A DNA stretch of 64,000 nucleotides from Lingula anatina (taxonomy: Eukaryota; Animalia; Brachiopoda). Where the stretch lies: assembly GCA_051362555.1 (NCBI GenBank), contig CM120643.1, forward strand, positions 9,982,001 to 10,046,000, read 5' to 3'. A program made the translations under genes and the position numbers. Shown in pieces: positions 23,184 to 44,957 of this stretch (positions within the stretch are counted from its first letter, which is position 1; the number at the start of each line of letters is the position of its first letter). Under the pieces are notes generated by a model, which was given only the letters and a program-made list of their open reading frames with translations, had not been told where the DNA came from and ran no database searches.

Positions 23184-23398
23184 CACCCCATTTCCATAGA
23201 TTAGATCGACCTACTTTAGATCGACCTAACTCCCTGGGGGTTCACGCTAAATAGCTGTCAGCCGGGCGGACACGAAAGTTAATTACCCCCTTACAGCTTG
23301 TAGTAGGCGGGACACACATTTAAGTCGGATTATCTGAAAGTAATCTAGTGAGACTCCCCGCGGGGATAGATCGATCTAAAATCTATGTGAATAGAGCC
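23184..23398. mobile_element. Family A MITE, near-identical inverted copy of 6912-7111
   Basis: Reverse complement matches 6912-7111 with few substitutions plus a short internal duplication. Confidence 0.8.
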
Positions 23399-24218: not shown

Positions 24219-24297
24219 ATGGAAAGCCTCTTACCATGGCTACTTCTGGTTGCTATGGTAACCGTGTGTTCTCCCAGGTGTTTACCTGAGATTACAG
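24219..24297 (+). CDS. vkr: VKR coding exon 1, signal peptide [26 protein letters not shown]
   Basis: ATG, hydrophobic core, donor G|gtaagc (phase 1). A probable acceptor upstream at ttccag|24083 implies further 5'UTR exon(s). Confidence 0.85.
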
Positions 24298-25894
24298 GTA
24301 AGCTTTTTTTTTTATTCTGTGCAATTGTGTTTGGTAGAATGGAATGGAATATTCTTTTTCATATCTAGTTAGAAATAAAAATGATTATCAGATTTCACAG
24401 TCCTTTAAAGAAATGAACACTTGTTTCTATGTATTTTGGCATGTGCAGACTGCTCTCATCAGGAGACTACTAAATCATTGACAATTAAGGAATTCATTTG
24501 CCCAAGACTGGACTTGTTAGTGATTCATTAGTTGTAAACCACTGATTTGTATACTCTCTTGGAACTTTTCAGACCCAAAGCGCCACCTATACTACAAAAA
24601 TGGTGATCTTCCAATCAGATTGGAGAGCAGCAACCGTGTGTCTCACAAGTTGGCTAATCACATCCTCAAAATTTTGCTGGAAGAGAAGGTTAACTACCAG
24701 AAGGTTGAGATTAAAGATGCTTCAGATCCTATGAATCCAACCAAAATACTCAATAGAATCTCTGGATGCGTGGATTCAAAGTGAGTGGGATTTTTGTTGA
24801 CTAGTTTGGTTGCTAGATTTTCTTTAAAACTGTCGATCGATACTTTTGTGATATGATATTTGAGTGATTGGTACATCTTGGACAATTGATAGTCATTGTT
24901 TTCAGTTGGTATATTTTGTTGCTAATTTCATGATCAACAATAGGACTTAATTATTTGAAATTTGTGATAATATTGGCAGTGATAGCCTAAAACTCGTTAA
25001 TATTTTGATTCAGAGAGCTAGAATGTATTTCCTTGCAAAACACTATGAAAAAATGTGTGTTAATTGTATTTTTACCCCCCCCCCCCAAAAAAAAAAAAAA
25101 AAAAATTAACAAACAATGTTTCCATTCCCAGTTGTTCTCGGCGCCAGGACATTCCCGAGACAATGGTGAACATAGAGGTGTGGATGCCAGCAGGATTTAA
25201 CATGGAACCATGGGCTGACAATGACCATGTCAAAGACTGCGGGCCACTAGGCCCTGTTGGGAGGTACGTGACAAGATATTTGAGAAATTCAGTTGAGATG
25301 ATATCAGTGATGATATCAGTGATGGCTCAAGTGAACCTCAAACTGAACTGTTGATGGCTAGCCATAGTTCGTGCAAGGAGAACGTAACATTGTGATAGTC
25401 ACAATTAATTGTCCAGAAATAGACTCAAGAATGTTCTTGCATATATTGCTACAACTGCTTTGATGAAAAAAAAATTGTTTCAGACTGGTTTAATAAATCA
25501 TGCTTTACCTCAAATTTTGCTTATGTCCTTTTTTTGATTTTCCAGGTATGGGTGGTACCTTCCAAATTTCTTTGTAAAGCAAAACTGGATCCAGCGTAAT
25601 CTCATCACAGACCACTGGAGGGCGCTGCAGTCTAGCAGTGTCACCAGGCTCTTGGACTTAAGCGATGCAAGAAACGAGCTTCTCAATTTGGTGCGTAAAA
25701 CGGAAACTTTAGGTAAAGAAGAGTCTGGCTACTACTGCAGCGCGTCATACTGCTCTCAGGGACAGTACAGTGGTGCCACCTGTGGTTCTGAACCGTGCGC
25801 TGTATTGGTGTCAGATAGCGTAGGTATGTATTAAGGTCACATAAAAGCGGTGGCTATGGTTTTTCTGATGGTTTAAACTAGCTGCACAAAATAT

Positions 25895-25930
<36 letters not shown>

Positions 25931-28218
25931 AAAAATAAAGAGATTAGGAGTAGAGTGTGTTGGAGAAGATATATGGTGTTGAATCAATCAGTTGTTTTTT
26001 TGTTATGACTGTCTAATTACTGCGAAACCTGTTAAACTGTTCTGTTCTGTAAACATTTTACTTTTTTCTCTATAGAATGTGTTTTCTCTCTTGGTCCTCT
26101 TCCAATCTGATCAATTCTTTTGCAGTTAGTTTGTGTAGTGTCATCTTTCCTAAGATTAACCTGTAATCACTTTTGTAGTTCTCACAGTTAAAAATAAGAC
26201 GTGAAAGGATGTACCATTTAAGGTTGATACTTTAAAGTTATTTTATTTATTATTTTTAAACAAGCTGGCCCCCTTTATGCTTCTCTTTATGCTTACCCTA
26301 ACGAAAAAGTCCTATAGGATCCTATAAGATCCTGTAGTATCCTATAGGAAATTGGGCCTGTTTCCTATAGAATCCTATAGGACTTTTTCGTATGGGTAAA
26401 TATAATGGTTCAGGTCTGTCTCATATCATTTTCACTCTTTTTATACTGTTTTTTTTTTTAAAGGAGAAGCTCAAAAACCTGATCAGTGGGACAATAAATT
26501 TATAAGTAACTGCATTCTTTTACATGTACTAATTAAGTGTTAATAAAGCTAAAACACGTCTCAAATATTTTTTTCAACATTGCTACAGTGTCCTATTTGT
26601 ATTTTCAAAGGATTAAAAAGACTATTTCTTGGATTTGCCCTTTCCCATATTCTATTTATTTATTTACTTATTTATTGGAACTAGAAACACTGTACATGGT
26701 TGCAAAGCAGTTTTTGGTGGCAATGTTTATCAAAATATTTCTATCCTTTTTCCCTAGCATCTTTCCATTTGCCAGCATTTTATCCTGCCTTGATGCCTGA
26801 AAGTGTCAAATTTTCAAATCAAAGCTTGCATGCACGTGCGTGCGTGCGTGCGCACACACACACACACACACACACACATAGCATTCAGTTCCTCATGGCT
26901 TCAGTGCAGTTTTGCATCATTTTGAAGATCTGCCCTGCATTTTACTTGCCCTCAAGCGGTCTCAACCAATTGCACAACTTGTCTCAACTAGCACAATCAG
27001 AAGATCCAGCTAATAAGTGCACCCACCTATCGCTATGGCAGGCACATAGCCCCAGCATAAAACTTATCCTAAAACACAACAAAAAGCAGCCCCCAGTGAT
27101 TTCAGTTAGTTTCAATAACTACTTACTCAAGTTACATATTCAGTGATCTTAAGTGAACTGCTACATCTGACATACTAAACTATACGATCATTGTTTTTGA
27201 AAGAAATGAGTTAAAAAGATAATGTACAGTATGTGCTAGTTTAAGATAGTAGAACCTGCATTTTTTGGAGAGATTTTTTCCAGTATTAAGAAGAAGCTGC
27301 TTAAATTTTACTTATAAAGAATCAAATGTTTGCACCAATTAAATTTTGAAAAAAAAATTTTCAGACTCTGATATGGATACCCTGAAGAACCAGATAGACA
27401 ATTTAAACCTGAGTGTAAAAGTTGCCTGGGTGGGCAAGAGGCTGGAACGGTTTGTACACCAGAGGACGATCAAAGGCAAACCAACGTTATTCTTCCACTT
27501 TACGCCCAGCGAACTTACAGCCAGCAACAACTACACAAATATCAAATTCCCTCGATGTACCAGATATCTGGAGCATCCCATTGACTGTGATTTTGAGATC
27601 AACCAGCTTTCCAAGGTAGTGTGGCCGAAGCTGGAGAAGGACGCCGAACCTGCATTCCATGTTATCCAGAAAATGACTTTCACTCAGCAGCAGTATATGG
27701 AACTATTGCAAGATTTCGAGCACATAGACGTCCATTTTAATGGTGCTTACCAAGAGGTGGCTTGCCAGTGGGTAAAGAAGAACAGCCACATTTGGTCGCA
27801 ATGGATTCCGGAAAATTTGGCAAACAAAACCAAGATATATCTGGGGGGAATGTTTTCACTGTCACGCCGTCACTATTTTGCGCCAGGTGTTTACGTAGGT
27901 AAGCTGTAATAGTCATTGTAGTAGAATTTGATTATTTCTGTTTACATGTGTGTATTTTGATGTAGGGAGCAGAGCACACAAACAGTGTGGTAATTAGACT
28001 GCAGCTTCCAGATTCCGGTGAAATAAGTTCATTTAAGTACATATTGTTCTCCTGTTCACCAGCTGTACATCACCCTGAGATCTTGTATGTTCTACAGATC
28101 AGTGATATCCCACAATGTGAAATGCTATTACTCATCAAGTACCACATTATATCACTGGGCGATTCCATGGTGCCTTCCCCCCTGTTACATCAACATAATT
28201 GACATTTTTATATCCTAT

Positions 28219-28254
<36 letters not shown>

Positions 28255-31200
28255 ATGAGAGGAAATTGCCTGATCTTATAATTAGCAATTTTGAAAGGAA
28301 TTTGTAATGCTGTAAGTCTTTGAAGTTTTGATGGTGGATAAATGGCCATGTGGGGAGGGGGGATGTTGCAGAATTACCCTGTTTTAAGAATTTAATGTTG
28401 CTAGTTATTGAGAGATCACTTTTTTGAGACATTCAATCAGTTATTGGTTCTAATGGCATCTTCATGAATTTTGGACACATTCTTTAATTTACTAAAAAAT
28501 ATGTTTTCTTGTCTTCTGTATAAAAAGAACAACCAGTGACTATATCATTTAATTGCCTTTTTTGTCATAAGTCACAGCGTATGTCTCATACCTGAATTTT
28601 TTTTCCCCTTTTCAGCCTCCAAAATGGCTGCTGATTTAATCAATAACGACACGTCATTGCTAAAGAACTACAAATTAGAGGTGGTTAAAATCGACACAAA
28701 GTGTGGACTGAAGGAAGGGCAGAAAGCCTTCATAGAGATGCACTACAACTCCACCTATAAGTTAGCAGGAATTCTTGGTGAGTTGGCTACATCTATTTCA
28801 AGCCCCAGTTTCACAAAAACACTGAAGTCAGTTCGCTGGCTTAGTTGACAAGGATTTTTATGAGAATGCTGTTACACTGCTCCTGATAGGGTAAGATGTG
28901 CCCATGTAACCTTAAAAATTCAGCTCTTAGCCAGGGTACCTGACCTAAGTTTTTTTGTGAAGCCAGGGCCAGCACAGAAACCTTATGAAAGTAACCACCA
29001 TGCTTGAAGTGGAAAACCTTTTTGTAACACATGATGTGAAGCCTTTTTTTGTTTTCCTGCAATGACATTTTAAATAAAAACGCAGGTACATCTGCTCTTA
29101 ACTCCACATGTCACATTAGTACACTCGTACTCATACATACTTGCTCATATACATACATATGCACATACCTGTTTAGCAGCCATTTAAGTACCATATCACA
29201 ATACGTACAGATCCTTCCATGTAGACTCATATACATAAACATTCATTCTTACGCTCATACGCACACAGGTGCGCATGCATGCAGACGTAGCAGGAAAGAG
29301 TTTGATGTAAGCTGTAACACCATTGTCTCTCATAAAACTACAGTAAGTACTATTTAAAGGCCCATGCAATCACATTAATTTATATACCCGTATGCACTCA
29401 TACACACAGAAATGCACTGGTGCATGCACATGCACGCACCCACATGTGCACACACACACATTAATAACCTGTCTGATTTCAGGCCCAGACTGTGCAGATA
29501 TTGTGCGTCCCATAGCGCGCCTTACCACCACCTATGACACTGTGATGATTAGCTTCAGTGCAGGCAGCATCCATCTTGGAAACCGACTCCATTATCCATA
29601 CTTCTTTAGAACCATACCACCAGTCAGCGAGTACAGGTAGGGGCTCGAGTTATCTTAGACCCCATTCCCACAGGGATACATTGATCTATCCCTGTGGGGA
29701 GTCTCACTAGATTACTGTCAGCTTAGCCGGCTTAAGGGTCTGTCCCGCCTACTAAAAGCTGTAAGGGGGTAATTAACTACCGTGCACACTCGGCTAACAT
29801 CAATTTAGCGTGAACCCCCAGGGAGTTAGGTCGATCTAGATGTATCAATCTAAATCTATGGGAATGCACTCTTAGGTCCCATTCAGAATAGGGGGCTAGC
29901 TAGTCCGAGGGTCAAATATGGTCTTATAAACTTGAATACTTCTCCACAGGATATCTGTTCAGTGTCTATAAGGGGATTAGATGGCAAGCTTTGTAGTGGG
30001 TTGCCATATTTGACCCTCGGACTAGTTAGTCCCCTATTCTGAATGGGGCCTTAGAGTGCAGTCAGAACAGCAGACTGACTTATCCTTGGATCAAATATGG
30101 CTACTAAAAAGCTTGCCACTTATGTCCTGATTCGACACTGAATAGATTCTCAGCAGGGATTATGCAGCAAACATTGAAGTGGGCGGGCCATATTTGATCT
30201 GCGGATCTGTTAGTCTACTGTTCTGAATCCCTTCTTAATGGGGTAATAAGGGCGGTGACCATTAGATTTCAAAAGAAAAATGTACAAATAGATATTTTAA
30301 AGAATACAAGAAAATTGATATAGGATTTATTATTGGTAAGCAAATAAATGCAGAAAATCACTTTTGTGAAATTCCGAACATTGTTATTTGAGACTGGCTT
30401 CAAGCTTCCAAGAATGAGCTACTTTCATGGCTTTCTTATCATGGAAAATAGATAACGCTTTTGATAAATGTCTAAGACTTTTGGCTTTGGCTGAAAGCTC
30501 TACTTGAAAAAAGCTTACGCAATCTTTTTTTTTTTTTAACTTGGAAATATGGAAATCTTTTTTTTGTACAGGCATTGTATCAGAATTAACAAAGTATCAG
30601 TTTTGTGCATCATTATTTGCTCTTAATGCTGTACATTTTACAGCTTTGCTGCTTGTTTTGTTTCAGCAATGTATATGCAGAGTTATTTAAGCTGTTGGAC
30701 TGGCAACAGGTGGCTGTGCTGACTTATGAAAAGGCAGAGGAATATCTGAGTCTTGACAACCCCATCAAGATAGTGTATGAAAAGAAAATCCCGGCAGACC
30801 GTAGCAAGAGAAATATCCCAATGGTAAGTGTCATCAGAATCTGGGGTAGCGCTAACACTCGCCAATTTAGCCAAATGCTAAAACTGACTTAAATTGGCTA
30901 AAGAAAAAGGGCCTGATTTGACTTGTTTTAGTCAAATTATAACAATTTTGATAACAAATTGACAAAAAAAGTGGTGATTTGGCTAAGCCAAAAAAATTGC
31001 TAGCGCTACACCAGAGAATGTGTATATGACAAGAAAATCTTGACAAAGCACAGTGAGATCAGAAATAATTTGAGGAAGTTTAAGAGAAAGAATAAGGTGG
31101 GAGTTTTAAAACTTGTGTCACTCTGGGTCTATTACTCGAAAGTATTCAAATAATTAAATATAAGGCAATCACACCAGATGCAATTACTGTGTAGTTATCA

Positions 31201-34200
31201 AGCTCTGGTTTATGCACTGAAAAATGGAAAATGAAAAAAGGGATAATTCACTACCTAGTCTGGATTAATCACTAAATCACTTAAAGATGTCAGTAATTTG
31301 ATTTTAAAAAAAATCCATGTTTTCATAGTTAAGAACTTGAATGTGCATTCATATATTTTGCTCAAATTTTTCAGATGCTGGAAGAGATCAAATCCAAAAA
31401 TGGCAGAATTATAATTGGCACTTTCTACGAAATGACGATTGCTCAAGATGTCATGTGTGAGGCGTATAGAAAGGTAGGAGCGTACTTAATGTATAAGGTT
31501 AAACCTAAATCATGATGTGATGGCTGACTTGAGATATTGTTTTGATATTTTTTCTTCTCACTTTCCGTAATATGAGGTTAAATCTAGGTTGGGATTTAGA
31601 TTGGTTAATGTGGCTTTAAACTAAGGTCATGATTTAGATTTTTTTTCTCAGTTTTCGTATTATGTGATTAGATCTGAGGCCACACTCAAAACAGTGGACT
31701 AACTAGTCCGAGGGTCAAATATGGCAACCCACTACAAAGCTTACACTCTAATCTGCTAATAGACACTGAATAGATACCCCTTGGGGAAGTATTCAAATGG
31801 GTCAACCATAGTCTAAGTTGGCTCTCAGCCTATTTAGTCCACTGTTCTGAATGAAGCCTTGGACATTATTTTGATTAGAGCTATTTCTGATAATTATCTC
31901 CAGTGACAAAACAAGTCACATCAGGATCACCTCCTCACCAGCAGCATCACTAACATTATAAACTTATATCAGAAATAAGATTTTTACAAAGTTATGTTCT
32001 TAGCATTACAATAGCATCTGAAAATCTTGAAAAATTTTCTAATCAAACCAAGCATTTTTTTCCTTTTTATGTACAGACACAGATGTGTCTGTACATATAG
32101 CCATCATCTGCGTCTGTCGTCGCCGTCGCCGTGCACTTTTACCGATAACACGATAAGTGGAAAACCATTTTACTTTTTGACTTGAAACTTGCAGAACTGA
32201 TGAATATTCATAATACGCAGGTCAAGTTCGAAAATCAGCATGATCGGGTCACTTTTAGGGAATTTATGCTGTTTTTTCACTTTTTTCAGCATATATGCAG
32301 CACCGATAACACGATAAGTGGAAAACCATTTTACCTTTTGACTTGAAACTTACAGAACTGATGAATATTCATAATATGCAGGTCAAGTTCGAAAATCAGC
32401 ATGATCGGGTCACTTTTAGGGAATTTATGCTGTTTTTTCACTTTTTTCAGCATGTATGCAGCACCGATAACACGATAAGTGAAACACAATTTTACCTTTT
32501 GACTTGAAACTTACAGAACTGATGAATATTCATAATACGCAGGTCAAGTTCGAAAATCAGCATGATCGGGTCACTTTTAGGTAATTTATGCTGTTTTTTC
32601 ACTATTTTCAATATAAATGCAACACTGATAACACAATATAAGAAAAACGGATTGTCCAATTGTAATTATACTCACAGCAGTGGTCAATCTTACTAAAACG
32701 CAGGTTGAGTTCGAAAATAAGCATAATCGGGCCATTACTTAAGAAGTTATACTGTTTTTTCACATTTCCTCAGATTCAATTATTAGGCATGTTAACAGTC
32801 TCATTATTTAACTAATAAGATGCCTAAAAGTGTTTGTTTGATATTTCCTGCATCATTACAACATTGTTAGTTGATTATGTAAAAAACATGGTATGTTATC
32901 ATGTATTGTGTAATAAAGTGTCAAAAATGGAAATAAACTCATATCATTGCAGTTTGTCATATTCAATCATCCACTATGTTTGTAACATAAACGTGCTAAC
33001 TCTGTAAGCCGCCATGCTGGAACACACGTGTATTATTCAAGTCGCTTACAACATTGTAAAATAAGAGATGGTCGCTTAAGACAAATAAAATGTTACATCT
33101 CCCTCTTTATAATCAACTAAGATTAATAAAGTAAGTAAAAGCATGTAAATTAAAATAAATTCAGTTTTTGGTGTTCACAGTTCTTTGTGAGTGTTCACTT
33201 TAACTTAAAGTCTTTCAATGTTCAATGTGAGAAGAGCATTCAGAGTCTCTGACCTTCTAGTCCTTTTGTAAATAATTTTTTTTTTTTTACTTAAAATTAT
33301 TTCATGCTCCACAGAGAATGTCTTTAACAGTCTATTTAAATGAAAGAAAAGAAAATTAAAGAAAAGTCTTTGGCTGAGTCTTTGCATTATAACTTAAAAC
33401 TGCTTTAAAGCAAGTTCACATGAAAATCCATATGTAGTATTAAATTAATACTGAATCGTTCACAAAACACAAGTTATAAATTTAATCTGTCTGGCGGTTT
33501 CACCACACGACCAGATCTTGTTACAATCCTTGGGGTATTAATTGCTGGTGTCACTGTTTTTGTTGGTGTTTTACACTGATCCTTGACAATATCTCGGGTT
33601 GGTGTTACTGTCTCCTCAGGTACTATATGCTGATCCTTGATGGGTGAATGTAATGGCTCATCACATGGCTCCAAGTCAACAAAATTAGGGTTATAGTGAT
33701 GTGCTTTTTCTGTTGATGATCTTAAGTGCTGACGATTACGTCTGTATACACGGTCATTTCCTTCCACTATGTATGATCTTGGATGCGTATGACGTTTAAC
33801 AACAATGGCTGGTGCCCATGTTTTTGAACCTGGATGAGGCTGCATTCTCACATGTTCTCCAGGGCTGAAAGCTTTCAGTTCTTTAGCACCTTTCCTTTGA
33901 TCATAATAATATTTCTGCTTTAGTTTCTCCTGGCTAAAATGACGTTTCACCTCTCGTTGGTTATATGCCTGTGGTTTTAACAGATTTCGAGCTGCAGGCA
34001 GTGTGTTTCTAGGTCTGCGTCCCATTAACAACTGGGAAGGGGACAAGTTTATGCCTTCCAAAGGTGTAGTTCTGTAGTTGAGTAGAGCAAGATACTTGTC
34101 ATCACATTTTTTCCACATTTTCTTCACAATTTGAATAGCTCTCTCAGCTTCCCCATTTGAACCTGGGTACTGAGGACTGGAGGTCATATGTTCAATATCA

Positions 34201-37200
34201 TACACTTTGCAAAATTGTTTGAATTCACATGAACTAAACTGTGGTCCATTGTCTGATCTGATTTTAAGAGGTATGCCATGACAACTAAACACATATTTCA
34301 TAGCATTGATTGTAGCAGTTGTAGTTGCGGCATTCAGTTCTACAACATCAATGTACTTTGAATAGTAATCAATGAGAAGTAGGTACTTCTTTGCTCCAAA
34401 GTCAAATATGTCACAACCAACTTCAGTATAGGGTAGATCTGGAGGGACGGTCGGTTTCAACGGTTCTGGGGGTAACCTGTTTTGATACTCAGAACATTTT
34501 GTGCAGTCTCTCACCATGTTTTCAATTTCCATATTCATTCCAGGCCAAAACATGACTTCCCTTGCACGCTGTTTGCATTTCACAACTCCAAGATGTGACT
34601 CGTGTATCAAGCTAAGCATGTACTTTTGTAATGACGGTGGAATAACTATTCTGAGGCCTTTGTAGATTACACCATCAAACACAGACAATTGGTCTCTGGA
34701 GTCCCAGAAATTTCTAATTTCATAAGGTGTCTCTCTACGCGTATCTGGCCATCCTTGAACAATTGTGTTGTATAGAGGCTGTAGCTCTCTTTGCGTTCTT
34801 GTTCTAATATCAGAGTATCTCTCGCTGCTCACAGAGATCATATCAATTAAACATAAATCATCTAGTCCTGTCACGTCAGAACTGGTGTCTGGTAAGTATG
34901 CTCTCGACAATGTATCTGCTACCACCATATCTTTGCCTTTCCTGTATACAACATTGAGATTGTACCACTGTAGACGTAGCAACATCTTCTGCAATCTCAT
35001 TGGAGCTGACAGTAATGGCTTCTTATAAATGCTCTCTAATGGCTTGTGGTCTGTGTACACTGTTGTTTCCTTACCGAAGATGTAGCAGTGGAATTTTATA
35101 GCTCCATGGACAATGGCGAGCATTTCCTTCTCTATTTGAGCATAACGCATTTCAACATCAGTAAGAGAACGTGACGTGTATGCTATAGGTCGGCCATCTT
35201 GTATTAGCACTGCCCCTAGTCCACTTCTTGATGCATCACACTGAATCTCTACGGGCTTGTTCACATCATAATAAGCTAATACAGGCGGTGTGCTACACAA
35301 GTGTTTGAGTTCCTCAAAACTTGCTTGTTGCTCATGTTCCCACTTGAATGACACATCATTCTTCAATAATGCTCTCAGTGGGGCATCCACCTGACTCAGG
35401 TTTGGTATGAACTTGGCTAGATACTGTACAAGACCAAGTATTCTTCGTATTCCATCCTTATCTGTGGGTGGTGTCATCTCAGTTATTGCGCGCACTTTTT
35501 CTGGATCTGGGCTCAGGCCCTCTGCTGTGAGGATATGTCCCACATACTGAACTTTGGGCTGACGCACCTGACACTTGTCAAAATTGAGCTTTAGGTTGTA
35601 TTCAGTAGCTCTCTGAATAACCTTCTTGAAAATCGAATCATGATGCTCACGATCTGTGCCTGCTATCAATATGTCATCCATTATAGCTGTGGCACCTTCT
35701 ATGCCTTCAAGCATTTCATCCATGATTCTCTGAAAGATTTCTGGCGCTGATTTAATACCAAAGGGTAGGCGAAGCCATCTGTACCTGCCAATTGGAGTGT
35801 TGAAAGTAGTCAAAAAGGATGACTGCTCATCAAGCTGTATCTGCAAAAATCCCTGTGGCGTCTAACACAGAAAACACTGTGGCTTTTGGAATACTAGCTA
35901 CAACTTCTTCAATAGTTTTCAGTGGATGATGCTCTCTTTTGATTGCATTGTTCAAATCACATGGGTCTATACAGATTCTCACTTTATCATTTCTTAATGA
36001 AACAACCATTGAACTGACCCATTCAGTTGGCTCATGGACTCGGGTAATGAAGCCATCTGATTCCATTTCCTGTAATTTCTCTACGATGCGTGGCCTCAGT
36101 GATGCTGGCTGTCGTCTGGCTGGATGTATAACTCCCTTTGCTGTTGGGTCTATCTTTATGGTATGCTTACCTGGTAGCGTACCTGTGTTCTTGGCAAGTT
36201 CAGTGAAATCATCTACACTGTTTACCTTGTTTACTCTGACTCTATGGAGGAGCCCAAGTTTCTCTGAAACTTCACCGTTAATGACATTTTCCTGGTCTAT
36301 GTCTACTACTTCAAAGTCAACTGGCAACTGAGTAGTATTGTATGCCACTGAAAGCTGTGCTTTTCCAATTGGGCGGATCTTGTGATTAGAGTAGGAGCGA
36401 AGAACTTTAGTTGTTTGGTTCAAGTTCTTGTGAAGACTAAGTTTTTCATAATCAGCTTTCACTAGAATGTTACATTTTGCTCCAGTATCTATACGAAATT
36501 TAAGTGGCTTGTCTTGGACATCTAGTGTCACTATCCATTTATCTTCAGCTGCACTGACAGAGTCAACATTTTCATCATCAACTTCAGTTGTATGAATGTA
36601 CAGTGGATCATTGTTGCTATCTTCACTCACTGAATCATCATAGTAAACATCATTATCACTTTCCTGTAAAGTGTGTACTGCCTTGGCTTTTCGTTTTCTG
36701 CATACTGAATACCAATGGTCTAGTCTTTTACAATATCTGCATTTGGTTCCTTTTGCTGGGCAAGTATTGTTTCTATGGGCTGTTGCAATATCTAAACCAC
36801 ACTGACCACATTTCTTGTTCTTTTGCTTCCAAGGTACGTGTTCCTGTCTCTTAGAGGCTTGTGAGGGATTTCTACTAGCATGGCTTTCCTTACTCTTATG
36901 TGACTTGTGATTAATGGCGGAAACTTCAACTTCTGGTCTTAGAATCTTCATTTGTTGCTGGGATGACTCATACTGTCTGCCTATTTCTAATGCTTGAGCT
37001 AGAGTAAGTCTTTCCCCTTTTTCTAACAGTTTCTCTTGAACTCGAGGATAATACACCCCACGTATTATACAGTCAATTAAAATGTCTTCAGCGTCTTGGT
37101 ACTCACAATCCATAAGAATCAATCTGATGTCTTTTACAAAATTGTCAAATGTCTCACCTTCCTCCTGCTTCCTTTTCTGGAGGTTAAATCTTTGTGCACG

Positions 37201-40200
37201 TTTGTTTTTTCTGGGTCTTACATAATTTTCAAGCTTGCCGAATATTGCTTCTGGTTTATCCTCTTCATCTTCTTCCCAAGTGAATGTTTTATAAATTTCT
37301 CTCCCTTGTTTTCCAATCCACATGCCCAACCATCCTGCCCTTATCTTATCATCTGTTTGTGATAGTGGACCCTTGAAAACGAGCTCAGCATGCTGTCGGA
37401 ATCGAGTAAATTCCAAGTACAAATTTTTAGACTCCCAATCGAAACTGGGTTGCTCGAATGCATACGCCATTTTAATTAGTGTCTCGCACAATTAAAAATG
37501 TTATGTGGCATGTGTAAGGACTCACTAATAGCTTGAAAAGTTTAACTTCTGACACCATGTAACATAAACGTGCTAACTCTGTAAGCCGCCATGCTGGAAC
37601 ACACGTGTATTATTCAAGTCGCTTACAACATTGTAAAATAAGAGATGGTCGCTTAAGACAAATAAAATGTTACAATGTTCAGAATTTCAGAATGGAGGAA
37701 ATTGGACATTTAACACTGTTCTATTGATACTTTTCCCATCTCATCAATTTTCTTAGTTGGTCATATAAAAATGACAGTAAAATGTTTATTTTGTTTTATG
37801 TTAAAAAAGTGTTAAAAATGGAAATAAACCCATTTCAGAACAGTGCTGTCTTGTTTACATTTTGGCATTATCAAGGCGTGACTTTGAAGTTCCATGGGCC
37901 TGAAGACCTTTGCTAGTCACATTTTCTGAATATCTGTGATACAAATATTTTATAATTAAAAATTGATGGTCATTAAGCTGTTAAACATTATGTAATATTG
38001 CATCAAAATTTGAAGAAACCATCATTTTGGGCACTGCTTCCATGATGACCATTTAAGGAAAATCATGTCACTTACTGGTCTCAAACTTACAGGATAGAAA
38101 CATGGGACTAAAATACAGCTTCAGTAGGCAATGCAGTCTGTTTGGTTTTTTTTTTTTTTTTTTTTTTTTTTTTGGCAGTTAAACAGTTTTTTGTGAAAAT
38201 TTAATTTTTCACATATTGGCATTTTCAAGGTGTGACTTTAAAGTTCCATGATCTTGAAGACTTTTGCTTGTCACATTTTCTGAATGTCCATGTTACTAAT
38301 ATTTTATAAATAACATTTGATTGTCATTATGCTGTTAAACATTATGTAATGTTGCATCAAAATTTGAAGAAACCCCTATTTTGGGCACTGCTCCTATGAT
38401 GACCATTTAAGGGAAATCATGTCACTTACTGTTCTCAAACTTACAGGAAAGAAACATGGGTCTAACATACAGCTTCAATAGGCAACGCAGTCTGTTTGGT
38501 AAATTTTTCTGGCAATTTAACAGTTTTTTGTGAAAATTTAATTTTCACTTATTTGCATCTTTATTTTCTGTTCTTTGTCTGTACATTTGTCAGCTTTGCT
38601 GCCTTGTTTCTCTTTGAATTTGCCCAAAATGTTTAAAACAGATTGGACAAGACCTATAGTACATGTTATTTCACTATTTTTCATTCATTTTTCTCTCCCT
38701 CGTTTCAAGGACATGACTGCTTTCAAGGGGTTCCAGTGGTTCCTGACGGGATATTTGGGGGAGGAATGGTGGGACACTGACTACTACAGAGACAGGGACA
38801 AAACTGTGTGTAGTACCAAGGAGATGTTGGAGGCCGTCAATGGTTCCATCTCCATCAACCATGCCATGTATGACCGCGACGATGTGAAGGTGGTGGGCAA
38901 CATGACCGTCGCCAAGTGGAAGAAAGAACTGGAGAGACACCTGGGACAAGTTAGTAGATTTTTTTTTACCTTACTAAGATTCCACTGTCTTGACAATATG
39001 ACAGTATGGCTAGCTACATGTAAAATTCAGCATTAGGCAGTGATATATATATATATATACATTTATTTATTTGAAGTGGAAGAAATGGACCTCATTTTCA
39101 ATACAATCTTTTTCTCATTATATATACCCTGTGCATTATTTGACTTTTCGACCAGACTACAGAGAATAGGAGTGGATTGAAAATTAAATGTTTAAATTTT
39201 AGAAAGTCATGAAAGCCAAATTGATGATGTAGATCTGTGTTAAATAGATAATTTGTCTGTATTTTTGTTTTGCTTGAAATTTTATGGAGTGATTTTGATG
39301 AAGCAATTAAAAATGGTTCTCCCACCCTAGCTGACTGCAAACACTGATTCTGTTGTTATAATTTTCATCCAGCATAAAAGATACAAAGATAACCCCCACG
39401 TGACGTACGCCTATGATGCTGTCTGGGTGTACGGCAAGGCTCTGGACAGTTTACTGAGTAAATCTCCCGCTGTGCTAGGAGACTTGACTAATAAGGAAAA
39501 TGCTAAGTAAGTAACACAAAAAAAAAAAAAGAAAAAAAAAGCCAATGGTATAAAAGTTTTTTTTTGGCTTGTGTTTGATAATTTTTGTTTATGATACAAC
39601 TACCAAGCTAATGAACATTTTTGCCAAAAAGAAAAGAAATTGACACTGCGTCTGGACAGATTTTATGTGTTTTGGTGCAGGTATGTTTAGATGTTTTTTT
39701 TTAAACCAGAATTGTTTGAGGTACAAGTCACTAGTAAAACAATCTGTAGCGAAATTGCAGTAAAAGTTACTGTTATGTTGGAAATGTTAGGCCTGAATGC
39801 TTTTATTATCACTTGGCATAAGATTCTAGAAACTTGAATTTTGAACTGTGTTCAGTAATCATATCTGATATATTGTTTGTAATGTCTCTTTCACAGTCCT
39901 GTTTCTAAAATATGTTGAACACTTTTCTTTTTAAGAAAATTAGTCGATGAGATCAGCAAGGTCCACTTCCAAGGTGTGTCAGGGCAGATATTTTTTAAGG
40001 AAGCTGATAGGTCAGGAATTGTGCTCATAAAACAGTTGATTCATAACAAGTCTCGTGTGATTGGGCGATATTTACCCAAACAACTGGATCTTGAGGAGAA
40101 AGATATCACGTGGCTGTGGCCTGGTGGGAAAATTCCTGACGGTCGCCAAGGTAGAAAGATTTATTACTGTAGACAACTTTATGCATAAATTTATGATTTT

Positions 40201-43200
40201 TGAAATGTTTATATATAAAAGATATATAATTTGAAATGGAAAGTAGAGTGGCTAAGTTTCTTTTCTTCCCCTCTGTCTGTCTCTGTCTCTCTCCCTCTCT
40301 CTCTCTCTCTCTTTTGCATTTGAGGCACTTACTTCTTTAAGCTTCACTACTTTTTTTTAATATGCTTAAGCCATCCAGAACAATTCCTATACTATTTTCT
40401 TATTTCCCAAAGATAGATACCAACTCTTTTTCTAAATTGTAGAAAATTCCAATCAGCCAGTGTGCAGCATCGAGGACTTCCGTGCAGCTCTTGGAGTGTC
40501 CTGCGATGTGGCTTTGGTGATAGCCAACATCATAGGGTTTGGTCTGCTTATCATGCTGCTGATCGTGGTGTTCTCTATCATTAAAAGAAGGTAAAGATAG
40601 ATTTACTCTACTGGTTTGAATGTGTTGTTTTGTGGAATTTAGAATGTGGTAGTTGAGCTTAATATTGTAGAATTTGTTAGTTGAGCTTAACATTGTGATT
40701 TGCAACGGTGTCTTGTGATATTCTTTATTGGCATGCTTTTGGGTGTCAGATTATTGTGAGCAATGTTGGTATTAGTTGGTTTGATCTGTTGAGAATGTAA
40801 AATTTGAATGTGAGATGTGGTAGCTACCACTAAGTGTGAGATGTGGTTCTAGTTGGAATGTCAGATTGGTGTTTTGTTTTTTTAGTGTTTTCATGCAGAT
40901 TCTTATCATATTGCAAGCTTTGTTTTGCAAATAGATTTCCTTCTAAAATAATCACAAATGTATGGCTCTCGGTTACATATTTTGATAGAAAAAGGGTCCA
41001 TTTAATTCACTTGAATTAATTTGTCTTATAGTTGTTGGTGCTTACATTTTAGATATGACCTGAAATTCCGCCGTACCAGGGAGAGGATGGAGGAGCTGGG
41101 TCTGCTCTCGGACACCCTGAATTGGTTGTCCCTGGATGAGTGGGAGCTCCCCAGAGACAAGGTTGTGCTGAATCGCAAGCTCGGGGAGGGAGCATTTGGA
41201 ACAGTGTATGGTGGAGAATCCTTCATAGATGACAGCTGGGTAGCAGTGGCAGTGAAGACGCTGAAAATTGGCTCATCTGTGGAGGAGAAGGTGAGTTAGG
41301 GAGGTTATTTGACCTGGGCTCCGTATCTCGAAAGGTTCGCTATGTTGTGCACGTTAGCAAGTGTCTCGATTCCATGGCCCCGTATCTCGAAATAGAATCA
41401 GTTATGGAATCGAGACACTAACGCACGTGCGCAACATAGCGAACCTTTCGAGATACGGAGCCCAGGGCACCGAGAATGAGATCAAGTCATTATCAATATA
41501 TTTATGGTGCGGTTTCGCTTGCAATATCCATAAGTGCATTTCAATAAAAAATGTGATAAATTCCACTGTTTCTCAAAAAAAAAAAAAAAGTCTATGTATT
41601 ACCTTCAAAACATATTAGATTTTTTTTATGCCACAGTTTTCAGGTGTTTTCATTGGGATTTTTGAGCTGACTGCACCTCATATTTAACAAGTTTATAACA
41701 ATCAATACGCCTGAAAATCTGTAGTATAAAACCTAAACAGAAGAACAAGCGTGAGGCATAAAGGGCCCTCTATATTTCAGCTTGATTTCTTAAGTGAAGC
41801 AGAGACGATGAAGAGGTTCAACCATGATAACATTGTCAGGCTGTTAGGTGTCTGCACCAGGGGAGAGCCAGCCTACGCTGTCATGGAATTCATGTTATAT
41901 GGTAATACAGAGAGAGAGAGAGAGAGGAGGGGGGCTGACAGGGCTTTATTTATCATGTGAAAAAAATCTTTGATTCAAGTTTGCATTGTGTTTTCAAAAA
42001 TTTGTAAAATGCCATTTTTATGAAAAAATGTTTAAACTGGATTTATTTGTGCTTATGTAACTTGAATAAAGTGGTACAATATGTTGGATTTTAAGATAAA
42101 TATTAAGGGTTTGAGATGTAGTCAGATGGAAGCAATTGACTTCAAACAAATCACATATCAAACATAAGTTTTTTTTCCGAGGAATCATGGAATTTCTTGT
42201 TTTTACATGACCTCAGAGGATATAAAACCCAAAGGCTAGGTGTTTGGTCTCATGTTAAATGTTCAGAGGTTTTCTTTTTATTTTGATAAACCTAGGCTCA
42301 TGTCTGAGATATCTTTTCAAACAATATTTTATGTTTCAGGTGACCTGAAGACATATCTCTTAGCTAGACGACAGCTGGTCGGCAAGACAACCCCAGAGGC
42401 GGAGGATGTGTCCGCGATCAGGCTGACCGCCATGGCTCTGGACGTGGCACATGGACTCCATTACTTGAGCTCCCTGCATTTTGTACACAGGTCAGGGTTT
42501 TTTTTTTTTTTTTTCTATTTCTCCAGGTGCTGGAAGGGGTATAGCTACTCCTAGGCCTGGAATTCCTTCGATTTTAGAAGATTTTGTTTTCACCCTACCT
42601 CTATTCATGTTTGGTAATTCATCAGATTCCTTGATTTCAAGTTATATCATTCCTAACCTAAGCGCAGCTCTGATCAAGCCCTAAGAAAGAAAAACTTTTT
42701 GAAACAGTTTATTCTGTTTTAGCTCTTAAGAATCCTTAAATAACTGAAGTCATTCTCCAGATTTTTAAGTGTCAGTAATGTTGCCTCTCTCTTATTCCCT
42801 GTTATACATAGTTGAATGTGTAGTACTGTATAGACATTGTTATGTCTACATATTCTTATCCTCCAACTAAGAATTAATAAGATTTTTGTCCTGGTCCATT
42901 CGCTAATTAATTAATAATGAAAACTGGGCTGTTTTGAAGGAGGTTTGCCCTCTCTAAGTGCTTATTACTTGACTTATTTTGAATTAATATGAACTTTTAT
43001 TATTTATGAAAATCTTTTTTTTTTTAATCTTCTTACAGAGATCTTGCCTGTAGGAACTGTTTGGTTCACATGAGTAAGACAGTAAAGATAGGTGACTTTG
43101 GGATGACCAGACCTATCTTTGACCATGACTACTACAGGTTTAACAAGAAAGGTATGATTTCAATGAAGATTTTATGAACCATTTGCTGTACTTCACAAAA

Positions 43201-44957
43201 TTGTGTCATTTTAATTCTTTTTTTACCAAAGCTTATTAAAACTTGGTTACTTACTTTACTTGTGGTTTAACAAACTGAGCCCATAAAAGATATGGTGTTT
43301 GTTGGTCCTTGTGCTAAATTCATGTGACACCAGTTTTCTTAACTTTACAGAAGTTAAATAAAAGATTACCAAAAGGAAAATAATATATATACATATATTG
43401 AGGTTTTTCAATTAATGGCTTGAGGAGCAATCCTGATACTTCAATAATATTTCATCTACTCGCTGTCAGAAGAAAAGAACTTCTGATTTCATAGCTTATT
43501 TAATAATTGTTTCTATAAATTTATAATCAATCAAGTGATCTCTATGATAATATGATAAAAGTAAACTTATTTTCACTGTATAGGTATGCTGCCAGTGAGA
43601 TGGATGTCTCCAGAGAGCCTCACAGATGGGAAATTCACATATAAATCTGATATCTGGAGTTTTGCCATCTTGTTGTACGAGATCGTCACGTTTGGCAGCT
43701 TTCCATATCAGGGTTTGACCAATAATCAGGTTTTGGAGTTTGTGAAGAACGGAAATACGCTGGAGCTTTCAGACCAAGCGTCCCCCAAACTGTAAGTAAA
43801 TTTTAAGCGTCCAAAAGTTGAATTTCGTGAATAAGGAAGGTGTGACCTGATGTTGGTGCTTTCAAACCATATAAACTAACCCCAAGCCACATGAATTTAC
43901 TGGGTAGTTTTAAAACATCTAGATGACACGTAATATAAATGTATCAAATGTGATTCATTTTGATTATCTTTAATGCACCTAAAAAGCCCTTATTTTTTAT
44001 GAAAGTATTAAAATCATCTTTAAGTATCTTGTTTTCTTTCATCCTATGGGGTGTTGTTATTTAAAGGGAAGGTAGGCAAATTATTTGTGTGTGTGTGGGG
44101 GGGGGGGGGGATTTTGGGATCAGTCATCATCTCTGATTAGTCTTTATTAATGTTACTTTAATGTTTAATAAAGCCTTTTTGTCAAAAATGAGTTAGAAAA
44201 TGTCTAAACACTGTTGAGAAAAGTGTAAATTGTGAAATTGTATTGTCAAATTGTGTTTTATCGAAACATTTCACACAAATTTTGACATTCTTCAAAACAA
44301 AAGTATGTAATTGGTTTCTTACTTTATTACAGGAAATTATTACTGAAAGCCTGTTGGGAGTATGAACAAAGCAAGAGGCCAGACACCTTGGACATTATTG
44401 GTATACTTGAGGCCAATCCTACGCTCATAACTCCGATTTTAGATGCTCCATTGTCAGCTGTCATAACGGAGGAGTCCAAATCACTCAATATCAATATTCC
44501 AGTCAAAAGTAAATTCGGTGGCATGGCCCGAAGACGGCAAATGCTACGCCAAAGCAGCTCCGTCTCTCACGACGGAAGACTGTTGTCGTTTAATGGCGAT
44601 GTTGAACCACATTCGCCAAACGAGCCCTCCTCTCCTGCTGTTAGAGGGGATCGCGTGCGGCATGCAACCGGGGAGACAGTGTTCATCTTTCCTCACAATT
44701 CGGAACACTCGAACCTTGAAAACTTCCATCTGAGTAACAGCAACAAGAGTATGCAGAGTTTGAAACTGGCGTGCAGCGACAGGGGCAGCGTGCCTAACGG
44801 GCTCGTGTGTCACCAGGACTCCATGGTCGCAGTTGGAGACTCCTCAAATAACATGATCCAGTTGAGTGCACACAGACACTCCCTGGAGGAGAAGGGGGAC
44901 AGTGATTACTGCAGTGACAATTCCAAGGAGATGTGGAATCACGTCAGTCAAGTATGA
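24219..44957 (+). CDS. vkr: Venus Kinase Receptor, 19 coding exons, 1331 aa (signal peptide - type II PBP-like domain - Venus flytrap - TM - InsR-like tyrosine kinase)
   Basis: Exons: 24219-24297, 24573-24780, 25132-25263, 25546-25823, 27365-27898, 28616-28777, 29483-29636, 30667-30823, 31375-31473, 38710-38949, 39373-39506, 39936-40150, 40443-40590, 41053-41290, 41781-41901, 42340-42490, 43039-43151, 43584-43791, 44333-44957. All introns are GT-AG, all phases are compatible, and the total is 3996 nt. VFT motifs: [34 protein letters not shown]. Kinase motifs: [41 protein letters not shown] plus RTK combination defines VKR. Confidence 0.93.
24573..24780 (+). CDS. vkr: VKR exon 2 (DPKRHLYY...[23 protein letters not shown]...CVDS)
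   Basis: ttttcag acceptor, gtgagt donor, open in phase 1->2. Confidence 0.88.
25132..25263 (+). CDS. vkr: VKR exon 3 ([17 protein letters not shown]...GPLGPVGR)
   Basis: ttcccag acceptor, gtacgt donor, phase 2->2. Confidence 0.88.
25546..25823 (+). CDS. vkr: VKR exon 4 (YGWYLP...DHWRAL...Cys-rich insert)
   Basis: tttccag acceptor, gtatgt donor, phase 2->1. Confidence 0.88.
26296..26396. mobile_element. 101-bp CCC...GGG MITE with TCCTATAGGA subterminal repeats, TA flanks
   Basis: ACGAAAAAGTCCTATAGGA / TCCTATAGGACTTTTTCGT. Confidence 0.7.
27365..27898 (+). CDS. vkr: VKR exon 5 (end of PBP-II-like domain, start of [11 protein letters not shown])
   Basis: Lies within ORF 27346-27909; tttcag acceptor, gtaagc donor, phase 1->1. 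Confidence 0.92.
28616..28777 (+). CDS. vkr: VKR exon 6 (VFT: [26 protein letters not shown])
   Basis: ttttcag acceptor, gtgagt donor; class C GPCR/ANF-receptor VFT motifs. Confidence 0.92.
29483..29636 (+). CDS. vkr: VKR exon 7 (VFT: [23 protein letters not shown])
   Basis: tttcag acceptor, gtaggg donor, phase 1->2. Confidence 0.92.
29658..30234. mobile_element. Train of three MITEs (A 29658-29871, B 29875-30050, B 30054-30234), each bounded by TTA
   Basis: TTA at 29655-57, 29872-74, 30051-53 and 30235-37; each unit has its own TIRs. Confidence 0.82.
30667..30823 (+). CDS. vkr: VKR exon 8 ([18 protein letters not shown]...)
   Basis: tttcag acceptor, gtaagt donor, phase 2->0. Confidence 0.9.
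30841..31014. mobile_element. MITE with TIR CTGGKGTAGCGCTA and AGAAT TSD
   Basis: AGAAT directly flanks both ends; starts 17 nt after exon 8. Confidence 0.75.
31375..31473 (+). CDS. vkr: VKR exon 9 ([33 protein letters not shown])
   Basis: GABA-B-like RIII..FY...CEAY motif; tttcag acceptor, gtagga donor, phase 0->0. Confidence 0.9.
31678..31858. mobile_element. Family B MITE
   Basis: Shares ACTAGTCCGAGGGTCAAATATGG and its core with 29875-30050. Confidence 0.7.
32981..33097 (-). repeat. 3' LTR (117 bp)
   Basis: Identical to 37558-37674; adjacent PPT AAAGAGGGAGA on the minus strand (33098-33108). Confidence 0.96.
33474..35852 (-). CDS. Retrotransposon pol continuation (RT core, RNase H, integrase)
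   Basis: GFLQIQL..TTFNTP.GRY..RLPFG; IMDD; CDAS..GLGAVL; YAQIEKE; TDHKPL; HESH..CTKC; SDNGPQF; NGEAER; C-terminal TRSGR..KPP.RL. Confidence 0.93.
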   Translation of the reverse strand, partial: GFLQIQLDEQSSFLTTFNTPIGRYRWLRLPFGIKSAPEIFQRIMDEMLEGIEGATAIMDDILIAGTDREHHDSIFKKVIQRATEYNLKLNFDKCQVRQPKVQYVGHILTAEGLSPDPEKVRAITEMTPPTDKDGIRRILGLVQYLAKFIPNLSQVDAPLRALLKNDVSFKWEHEQQASFEELKHLCSTPPVLAYYDVNKPVEIQCDASRSGLGAVLIQDGRPIAYTSRSLTDVEMRYAQIEKEMLAIVHGAIKFHCYIFGKETTVYTDHKPLESIYKKPLLSAPMRLQKMLLRLQWYNLNVVYRKGKDMVVADTLSRAYLPDTSSDVTGLDDLCLIDMISVSSERYSDIRTRTQRELQPLYNTIVQGWPDTRRETPYEIRNFWDSRDQLSVFDGVIYKGLRIVIPPSLQKYMLSLIHESHLGVVKCKQRAREVMFWPGMNMEIENMVRDCTKCSEYQNRLPPEPLKPTVPPDLPYTEVGCDIFDFGAKKYLLLIDYYSKYIDVVELNAATTTATINAMKYVFSCHGIPLKIRSDNGPQFSSCEFKQFCKVYDIEHMTSSPQYPGSNGEAERAIQIVKKMWKKCDDKYLALLNYRTTPLEGINLSPSQLLMGRRPRNTLPAARNLLKPQAYNQREVKRHFSQEKLKQKYYYDQRKGAKELKAFSPGEHVRMQPHPGSKTWAPAIVVKRHTHPRSYIVEGNDRVYRRNRQHLRSSTEKAHHYNPNFVDLEPCDEPLHSPIKDQHIVPEETVTPTRDIVKDQCKTPTKTVTPAINTPRIVTRSGRVVKPPDRLNL
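35830..37470 (-). CDS. Retrotransposon gag-protease-RT(N-terminal) ORF
   Basis: Starts MAYAFEQ; zinc knuckles CGQC..H..C and [14 protein letters not shown]; protease IDTGA; RT start WVSSMVV..RICIDP..LN; ends just after LDA through a frameshift. Confidence 0.9.
   Translation of the reverse strand: MAYAFEQPSFDWESKNLYLEFTRFRQHAELVFKGPLSQTDDKIRAGWLGMWIGKQGREIYKTFTWEEDEEDKPEAIFGKLENYVRPRKNKRAQRFNLQKRKQEEGETFDNFVKDIRLILMDCEYQDAEDILIDCIIRGVYYPRVQEKLLEKGERLTLAQALEIGRQYESSQQQMKILRPEVEVSAINHKSHKSKESHASRNPSQASKRQEHVPWKQKNKKCGQCGLDIATAHRNNTCPAKGTKCRYCKRLDHWYSVCRKRKAKAVHTLQESDNDVYYDDSVSEDSNNDPLYIHTTEVDDENVDSVSAAEDKWIVTLDVQDKPLKFRIDTGAKCNILVKADYEKLSLHKNLNQTTKVLRSYSNHKIRPIGKAQLSVAYNTTQLPVDFEVVDIDQENVINGEVSEKLGLLHRVRVNKVNSVDDFTELAKNTGTLPGKHTIKIDPTAKGVIHPARRQPASLRPRIVEKLQEMESDGFITRVHEPTEWVSSMVVSLRNDKVRICIDPCDLNNAIKREHHPLKTIEEVVASIPKATVFSVLDATGIFADTA
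37545..37557 (-). promoter_or_regulatory. Primer-binding site TGGTGTCAGAAGT (tRNA-Leu(CAA)-type)
   Basis: Abuts the 5' LTR; complementary to ...ACTTCTGACACCA, the 3' end of metazoan tRNA-Leu(CAA). Confidence 0.85.
37558..37674 (-). repeat. 5' LTR (117 bp)
   Basis: Identical to 32981-33097. Confidence 0.96.
38710..38949 (+). CDS. vkr: VKR exon 10 ([21 protein letters not shown]...)
   Basis: ttcaag acceptor, gttagt donor, phase 0->0; GABA-B-like W(F/I)..G...WW motif. Confidence 0.9.
39373..39506 (+). CDS. vkr: VKR exon 11 (…[15 protein letters not shown]…)
   Basis: YDAVW VFT motif; atccag acceptor, gtaagt donor. Confidence 0.92.
39936..40150 (+). CDS. vkr: VKR exon 12 (…[15 protein letters not shown]…WPGGKIPDG)
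   Basis: ttttaag acceptor, gtagaa donor, phase 2->1. Confidence 0.9.
40443..40590 (+). CDS. vkr: VKR exon 13, transmembrane helix [24 protein letters not shown] followed by KRR
   Basis: 24-residue hydrophobic stretch with basic stop-transfer; ttgtag acceptor, gtaaag donor. Confidence 0.9.
41053..41290 (+). CDS. vkr: VKR exon 14 (juxtamembrane, [14 protein letters not shown])
   Basis: Kinase subdomains I-II; ttttag acceptor, gtgagt donor. Confidence 0.95.
41317..41462. mobile_element. 146-bp palindromic MITE related to 1035-1171, CTG/CAG flanks
   Basis: TIR GGCTCCGTATCTCGAAAGGTTCGCTATGTTG; shares internal GTTATGGAATCGAGA with 1035-1171. Confidence 0.8.
41781..41901 (+). CDS. vkr: VKR exon 15 ([25 protein letters not shown])
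   Basis: Kinase subdomains III-V. Confidence 0.95.
42340..42490 (+). CDS. vkr: VKR exon 16 ([11 protein letters not shown]...HFVHR)
   Basis: Kinase subdomain VIa. Confidence 0.95.
43039..43151 (+). CDS. vkr: VKR exon 17 ([32 protein letters not shown])
   Basis: Catalytic loop and DFG; activation-loop YY. Confidence 0.95.
43584..43791 (+). CDS. vkr: VKR exon 18 ([20 protein letters not shown])
   Basis: Kinase subdomains VIII-X. Confidence 0.95.
44333..44957 (+). CDS. vkr: VKR exon 19 (CW....RP, Ser-rich tail, ends VSQV*)
   Basis: ttacag acceptor in phase 2; stop TGA at 44955-44957. Confidence 0.92.

Follow-up and report, generated by a model that had tools for sequence, protein, structure and literature searches.

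The window analysed here is a stretch of 64,000 nucleotides from the brachiopod Lingula anatina (assembly GCA_051362555.1, contig CM120643.1, positions 9,982,001 to 10,046,000 of the forward strand), and it holds a gene for a Venus kinase receptor (VKR) that carries a second clamshell besides its Venus flytrap (VFT). Residues ~21–381 form a type II binding-protein domain of the ProX/TmoX/DmpX group, which sequence profiles and structure models set apart from the type I fold of the VFT. That this second clamshell in a known receptor family is real, spliced and family-wide is near certain. As a part of VKRs the outer domain is apparently undescribed; the Lingula gene itself adds one more ordinary member to an established family, and domains of this type are already on record from fungal and protist receptors. 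The reading that we favour, tentatively and with the balance lying slightly against it as a complete account, is that VKRs have an outer clamshell of ProX/TmoX type throughout the family, that this clamshell is predicted to pair, and that its remodelled cleft would bind a ligand other than betaine and tune the kinase. This reading starts from the observed gene structure, the splicing of exons 1–7, the sequence relationship to ProX and TmoX, the presence throughout the family and the Trp-to-Arg change in the cleft, to which it adds predictions of the fold, of a set arrangement against the VFT and of self-pairing through the hinge-side surface.

The Pfam profile OpuAC matches 9/9 aligned domains, the Lingula domain with 25.2 bits (E 1.5e-5) against a cut-off of 21.2. 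On the whole protein the score is 19.3 bits, below the cut-off, and the match is limited to the C-terminal part of the profile; exon 5 alone matches with E 0.0013. The domain profile gives four matches at E ≤10 among PDB sequences, all of them betaine-group binding proteins, with TmoX (4xz6) at the top (E 7.9e-10). An Atlas search returned OpuAC clusters at 0.88, below its mark of 0.9, and is taken as a lead only. The AlphaFold2 model of the domain (91 sequences; pLDDT 94.3, pTM 0.92) shows a predicted bilobed type II fold with two hinge strands, and Foldseek searches with this model rank TmoX, DmpX, OpuAC, ProX and ChoX first, TmoX being the best (E 1e-14). A wide fold search gives DmpX at Z 24.7 (root-mean-square deviation (rmsd) 3.1, 274 residues aligned), TmoX at Z 24.1 (rmsd 3.5, 274 aligned) and E. 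coli ProX at Z 22.9 (rmsd 4.1, 287 aligned); the top 13 rows, each with a Z of at least 15.4, consist of betaine-group binding proteins and of sensors constructed from these, and the next row falls to 10.0, binders of other compounds scoring 10 or less. The model is closer to closed than to open OpuAC (rmsd 5.4 vs 8.6), and predicted models of such clamshells tend toward the closed form. Both clamshells are present in the model of a homologue (P0003, 868 residues; pLDDT 89, pTM 0.78), whose best fold matches are GABA-B ectodomains, and a pTM of this size suggests that the orientation between the two is set.

The earlier note, made from the sequence alone, had proposed a clamshell of the ProX/OpuAC group distinct from the type I VFT, and the OpuAC profile and the AlphaFold2 and Foldseek matches bear it out. 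It had placed the domain at residues ~38–381, between the signal peptide and the VFT; the domain is indeed there, but starts further upstream, near residue 21–28. The Cys-rich insert that it had noticed in exon 4 also holds up, its four cysteines (C204, C209, C219 and C224) being kept in 90–98% of 133 VKR domains, while the C224 column is empty in five stand-alone binding-protein domains.

The receptor gene has 19 exons on the + strand (24219–44957), with an open frame of 1331 residues and GT-AG introns. Its parts are as follows.

24219..24297, + strand: exon 1, with the start codon, the signal peptide (residues ~1–19) and the first conserved cysteine, C21
24573..24780, + strand: exon 2, residues 27–96 of the type II domain, including R48 and H51
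24641–24709, + strand: motif at residues 50–72, exon 2
25132..25263, + strand: exon 3, residues 96–140, with E111, W113 and the first hinge strand
25169–25183, + strand: motif at residues 109–113, exon 3
across exons 3/4, + strand: motif at residues 133–146
25546..25823, + strand: exon 4, residues 140–233, including the central part (154–169) of the surface predicted for self-pairing, and the Cys-rich insert (C204–C224)
27365..27898, + strand: exon 5, with the rest of the type II domain, the linker and the first VFT strand
27487–27507, + strand: motif at residues 274–280, exon 5
27607–27681, + strand: motif at residues 314–338, exon 5
ending exactly at 27810, + strand: motif at residues 363–381, exon 5
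27832..40150, + strand: Venus flytrap (type I binding-protein fold), from the end of exon 5 through exon 12
40517..40582, + strand: single transmembrane helix by hydropathy, exon 13, residues ~823–844
41053..44957, + strand: exons 14–19, coding for an insulin-receptor-like tyrosine kinase in which every catalytic motif is present, then the tail and the stop codon

The six motifs are those quoted in the earlier note, and all are found in the 1331-residue frame at the positions it gave. Exon 1 starts at the first ATG after an in-frame stop, and the N-terminus of the protein is hydrophobic. The codon of R48 (24635–24637) aligns with the W55 site of TmoX and that of W113 (25181–25183) with the W102 site. 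Exon 5 contains F276 and F278 (27493–27501), the second hinge and the final domain helices, which end at 27810; a linker of ~7 residues leads to the first VFT strand, from residue 389 (27832). Because the end of the domain and this strand share exon 5, the fusion of the domain to the VFT is independent of splicing. A search of the window with the receptor protein matched only the receptor's own exons, and the search with exon 5 led to P0001 (Lingula anatina LOC106157335, 1331 residues), which differs from the gene model at four residues.

Raw RNA reads from runs under the Lingula anatina species label were aligned to the window. Joints 6–7 and 8–9 are seen in 4/4 runs of one alignment. In another, joints 1–2, 2–3, 3–4 and 5–6 are seen in 4/4 runs, and joint 4–5 in two of the four, with six reads from six starts in run X5 and one read in run X9; the other two runs, both of which differ from the window at many letters, gave no read over it at 95% likeness. 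The splicing of exons 1–4 to exon 5, on which the earlier proposal depended, is seen in joints 1–2, 2–3, 3–4 and 4–5. The joint evidence covers exons 1–7 plus joint 8–9, with no single read spanning all of them. The runs themselves are not alike: X7–X9 diverge from the window at many exon letters between 24050 and 28810 and X5 is close to it, which points to strong divergence among animals under one species label.

The product of the gene is a VKR. On P0001, Pfam finds ANF_receptor at 409–751 (E 7e-49) and the tyrosine kinase profile PK_Tyr_Ser-Thr at 885–1146 (E 1.8e-83), with matches at the level of exons too, and the hydrophobic stretch at 823–844 is the only one besides the signal peptide. 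The kinase has the Gly loop, VAVKx16E, HRDxxxRN, DFG, YY and MxPE, the motif list being that of PMC3703292. The nearest kinases are VKRs, and the Capitella and Lottia records in the table of that paper are among them, within the best 120 of 1817 matches. The amino-acid site of the VFT (S66, E92, R107 and Y406) is kept in most members, and the serine is reported as necessary for activation by arginine. In Lingula, R107 and Y406 are retained as R507 and Y695, whereas S66 is A469 (29494–29496; Ser or Thr in 132/136 VKRs) and E92 is G492 (29563–29565; Glu in 130/137). These two changes are nearly unique among ~137 VKRs, and the A469 codon is also present in RNA reads. Membership of the family stands despite the lost serine, since cestode and lepidopteran VKRs also lack it (PMC3703292), but the two changes suggest that the Lingula receptor may not answer arginine.

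The outer domain is a property of the family. Our sample consisted of the best 120 of 1817 kinase matches, picked by kinase likeness alone and then scored with the domain profile, and is biased toward kinases close to that of Lingula. A VFT is present in 119 of these records, and among the 119 the domain is whole in 106 (six of which were in the profile seed), partial in eight and missing from five; four of the five start inside the VFT and the other starts 80 residues ahead of it. No complete VKR record lacking the outer domain was found among the 119, and shuffled N-termini, used as a control, reached at most 1.4 bits. The named carriers include nemertean, annelid, mollusc, hemichordate, chelicerate, myriapod, crustacean and insect records, including Drosophila willistoni, with divergent copies in Schistosoma and Hymenolepis; cnidarian, echinoid, hymenopteran and choanoflagellate VKRs are absent from the named records, and the one brittle-star record is cut at its N-terminus. 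Schistosoma, Hemiptera and some others retain the domain with a cleft that is further eroded. A fusion confined to one lineage is rejected on the 106/119 figure for kinase-selected records. The earlier note was right that this receptor has a second clamshell; the clamshell is shared by the family and is not peculiar to the Lingula receptor.

Precomputed Pfam annotation places PF04069 on five of the 120 records, so that databases already hint at the domain. In print, VKRs are described as VFT, membrane helix and kinase only (PMC3703292, PMC2680970, PMC4026697, PMC4522560, PMC5601475, PMC9661718, PMC4038586), as the earlier note had held, and in the text of the VKR papers examined the outer domain is absent. 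These descriptions omit a domain of 360 residues, although the same VKR records carry it. No link of VKRs with a betaine-type or type II domain was found in the literature searched, subscription papers, supplements and the paper on the receptor of ovary ecdysteroidogenic hormone (OEH; PMC4413300) lying outside its scope.

The relatives of the domain suggest that it derives from an old eukaryotic module. At E ≤0.001 the domain profile matches 1536 representatives; the analysis covered the best 150 of these, with 80 scanned for architecture. Beyond VKRs, the scanned matches include 7tm_3 receptors, an RGS protein with seven transmembrane helices (7TM), a guanylate cyclase, two-kinase proteins, a channel, TIR proteins and Na/H-exchanger proteins. 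The species-named carriers outside VKRs are Hondaea, Lithocolla, Blastocladiella and Capsaspora, and the remaining non-VKR domains are labelled as from other eukaryotes by their architecture. Class C receptors that bear OpuAC have already been published from fungi and protists (PMC3251606, PMC3971589). In a tree of 55 rows (16/133 VKR domains, 35/46 others and 4/5 stand-alone proteins) the VKR domains form one clade (support 100/97) inside a group of 48 rows (96/99) that holds no stand-alone protein; the outgroup is imperfect, its four stand-alone rows not lying on one side of a branch. On this tree, with its four stand-alone rows, a recent transfer from bacteria is rejected as the simple reading, since the VKR domains are nested among eukaryote-type receptor domains. 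The label 'bacterial' in the earlier note thus fits the remote ancestry of the domain and not its immediate source. We infer that a eukaryotic sensor module already in existence was fused once, early on.

Some of these relatives have layouts of their own. P0106 (a JGI record of 1628 residues) is a non-VKR membrane protein in which a domain of ProX type is followed by an ANF_receptor VFT, and its domain groups with the TIR- and Na/H-exchanger-linked copies, apart from VKRs; by this order and grouping, the stack of two clamshells may have arisen twice. P0029 (a EukProt record), a class C 7TM receptor with the outer domain as its only ectodomain, is the best-scoring single-domain non-VKR relative among the matches listed (E 4.6e-56). 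P0052 and P0053 have the domain, a partial 7tm_3 match and then two kinase domains, an unusual layout for a receptor.

The outer domains of two receptor chains are predicted to pair with each other. The two-copy model of the domain scores 0.69, the best of three controls 0.30, and the runs have at least 94% of contacts in common at a pLDDT of at least 85. The mark for pairing was reached by 21/30 pair-solved proteins and 0/23 single-chain proteins in a microbial benchmark, and by 17/29 pairs (animals 7/16) and 0/30 single chains in a eukaryotic one. The predicted surface centres on residues 154–169 and 287–311, beside the hinge strands. Sugar-attachment sites are scarce at its 31 positions (23 of 572, where their share would be 48), and its polar positions are more conserved (0.47 vs 0.34; 42/10000 draws). 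VKRs act as dimers (PMC4038586, PMC4026697).

Several points weigh against this part of the proposal. The mark was reached by only 1/7 eukaryotic pairs without an older solved relative, and one single-chain benchmark protein scored 0.68. The score is a measure of model confidence, obtained with an isolated domain folded without the VFT, which may cover that face. N288, the second commonest sugar site (40/133, present in Lingula), lies at the rim of the interface. Conservation is not raised over the interface as a whole (0.44 vs 0.43 for the domain), and the excess at polar positions includes hinge residues that are also kept in non-VKR relatives. In print, both the dimer surface and arginine binding are assigned to the VFT (PMC2680970, PMC3703292).

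The cleft of the domain was compared with those of solved relatives by alignment, and the geometry of the pocket is deduced from these alignments. TmoX holds trimethylamine N-oxide (TMAO) in a box of W55, W102, W177 and W222, together with F106, F220 and E131 (PMC8918994), and DmpX uses four similar tryptophans and Y200 (PMC10030565). In the Lingula receptor the TmoX box maps to R48, W113, a non-aromatic position near 234 and F278, so that by alignment two of the four sites are aromatic; F118, F276 and Y141 align with the F106/F220/E131 set, near the cleft. Residues were counted in VKRs, in 46 other eukaryote-type domains and in five stand-alone domains, with 17 near-duplicate ids and nine fragments set aside. 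Position 48 is Arg in 107/120 VKRs, against Trp in 39/46 other domains and 5/5 stand-alone ones, and all four box sites are aromatic in 0/120 VKRs, 30/46 other eukaryote-type domains and 5/5 stand-alone domains. Within VKRs, H51 (99/122), E111 (123/131) and W113 (117/131) are conserved; position 278 is Trp in 93/133 domains and Phe in Lingula; position 276, Tyr in 34/46 relatives, is mostly Phe or Leu; and position 231, just beyond the counting window of the box, is Tyr or Phe in 80/133. Of the aromatic cage that the earlier note had said to look for, W113 and F278 are kept, while R48 and the lost W177 site weaken its case for osmolyte sensing.

Over 122 VKRs the median identity to the Lingula protein is 33% for the domain and 36% for the VFT, so conservation of the outer domain is close to that of the established ligand domain. 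Together with the conserved H51, E111, W113 and R48, this argues for selection on the cleft region, which would preserve either a site for a new ligand or a built-in plug. As judged from the aligned residues, the ligand of the remodelled cleft is likely something other than betaine, and the basic character of the cleft (R48, H51) hints at an anionic or zwitterionic molecule.

In the mechanism that we propose, an old eukaryotic receptor module would have become fused to the VFT-kinase in a single event that predates the divergence of the sampled animal phyla. The outer clamshell is predicted to pack on the VFT in a fixed manner, and the outer clamshells of two receptor chains to pair through the hinge-side surface. 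Closure of the cleft upon ligand binding would then shift the dimer, and this shift could reach the kinases by way of the VFT and then the membrane helix. It is possible, though rather doubtful, that all VKRs are two-input receptors in which the outer clamshell both pairs the chains and senses a ligand, and that in Lingula, where the flytrap is without its Ser and Glu, this clamshell is now the main sensor.

To the points that count against the proposal must be added that R48 itself could fill the half-cage and leave the cleft ligand-blind. The domain would then be a scaffold with its shell shut, only pairing or spacing the ectodomains, which we regard as unlikely yet far from negligible. The cage-wall tryptophan is replaced by Arg in 107/120 VKRs right beside the conserved E111 and W113, the two-copy self-pairing model passes, and the domain persists in Schistosoma, Hemiptera and others with further eroded clefts; the better fit of the model to closed OpuAC points the same way, though such models tend to close. 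A plug would also explain the conservation of the cleft, so sequence does not separate such a scaffold from a ligand-binding clamshell. Lingula, however, has lost two pocket residues of the VFT and yet keeps five aromatics near the outer cleft, which a working outer site fits better.

A sensor for betaine, choline, TMAO, dimethylsulfoniopropionate (DMSP) or a similar osmolyte, feeding insulin-like signalling, is an improbable alternative. Every nearest solved structure binds such compounds, and in SAR11 TmoX mutants of the W55 and F220 equivalents retained fairly high binding, the W177 equivalent may play no part, and the W102, F106 and W222 equivalents are needed (PMC8918994), these last being sites that VKRs mostly keep; Tyr or Phe at 231 might also replace W177. 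The absence of the four-site aromatic box from every VKR counted (0/120) speaks against it, as does the Tyr at 276 that DmpX needs (PMC10030565) and that VKRs mostly replace with Phe or Leu. An Arg, unlike an Ala, should moreover repel a trimethylammonium group, and the domain persists in land insects and parasites. With the box half replaced and an Arg at one wall, betaine-type sensing is the weaker reading.

The domain has, if anything, a slimmer chance of being the dock for a protein hormone (neuroparsin/OEH in arthropods, another peptide elsewhere), with the VFT reading amino acids or calcium. The mosquito VKR binds the 86-residue OEH, which reviews place on the VFT by assumption only (PMC4522560, PMC5601475), and the domain, which holds the outermost position, is found both in Anopheles VKRs and in a record under the name NeuroparsinReceptor; neuroparsins, on the other hand, are described as arthropod-only (PMC4522560), and the domain occurs in all phyla sampled. 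An artefact of mis-joined exons or bacterial contamination, for which the whole-protein Pfam score just below the cut-off might be cited, has a next to nil probability and is refuted by four spliceosomal introns, the RNA joints, an exon shared with the VFT, more than 100 orthologues and the whole domain in 106/119 VKRs.

Egg formation in schistosomes and mosquitoes is under the control of VKRs, a family reported to be absent from vertebrates. Their ligands are unsettled, arginine, calcium and a protein hormone all having been assigned to the one flytrap (PMC4522560, PMC4038586), and the discussion in the papers examined has passed over about half of the ectodomain. The family likely has an overlooked control site, and the named cleft residues and the predicted pairing surface make the question of the second clamshell testable. 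The outer domain further connects a receptor kinase of animals with an ancient family of eukaryotic sensors. If the two-input reading were true, the fertility receptors of schistosomes and mosquitoes would offer a druggable site that is absent from vertebrates.

The window has further features outside the coding exons of the receptor. Intron 9 contains, on the minus strand (32981–37674), a long terminal repeat (LTR) retrotransposon with frames of 553 and 795 residues, encoding reverse transcriptase, RNase H and integrase; its identical 117-base LTRs point to a recent insertion within the receptor gene. The same intron holds about three tandem copies of a 161-base unit, 84–89% alike (32141–32767). 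Interspersed repeat copies at 23182–23400 and 29670–29840 have very deep RNA coverage with many loose ends. A frame of 176 codons on the minus strand (57170–57700), with a signal-peptide-like stretch and no Pfam match, is possibly the first exon of a neighbouring gene.

The receptor is best placed by comparison with known systems. With SmVKR1/2, AmVKR, AaVKR, CtVKR and LgVKR it shares the signal peptide, the GABA-B-like VFT, the one membrane helix and the insulin-receptor-like kinase (PMC3703292). With the substrate-binding proteins of cluster F-III, namely TmoX (4xz6), DmpX (7yle), ProX (1r9q), OpuAC (3l6h) and ChoX (2reg), the VKR domain shares the predicted fold over its whole length (Z 21–25) and mostly retains the W102 and W222 sites. 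It is, however, only 12–19% identical to them, has the Cys-rich insert, carries Arg at the W55 site and has mostly lost the W177 site; those proteins are parts of ABC transporters, whereas the VKR domain is encoded by a spliced animal gene as part of a receptor with VFT and kinase. In ionotropic glutamate receptors, too, a type I and a type II clamshell follow one another within one animal receptor, and the type II domains are paired. Their order is the reverse, the type II domain adjoining the membrane, their output is a channel, and their type II domain belongs to a different branch (Z ~9 to the VKR domain model). In class C (7tm_3) receptors bearing OpuAC the same domain, Cys insert included, likewise forms the outermost part of a membrane protein; there it is usually the sole type of clamshell and keeps its aromatic box (Trp at 48 in 39/46), whereas the VKR copy is remodelled and sits on top of a VFT.

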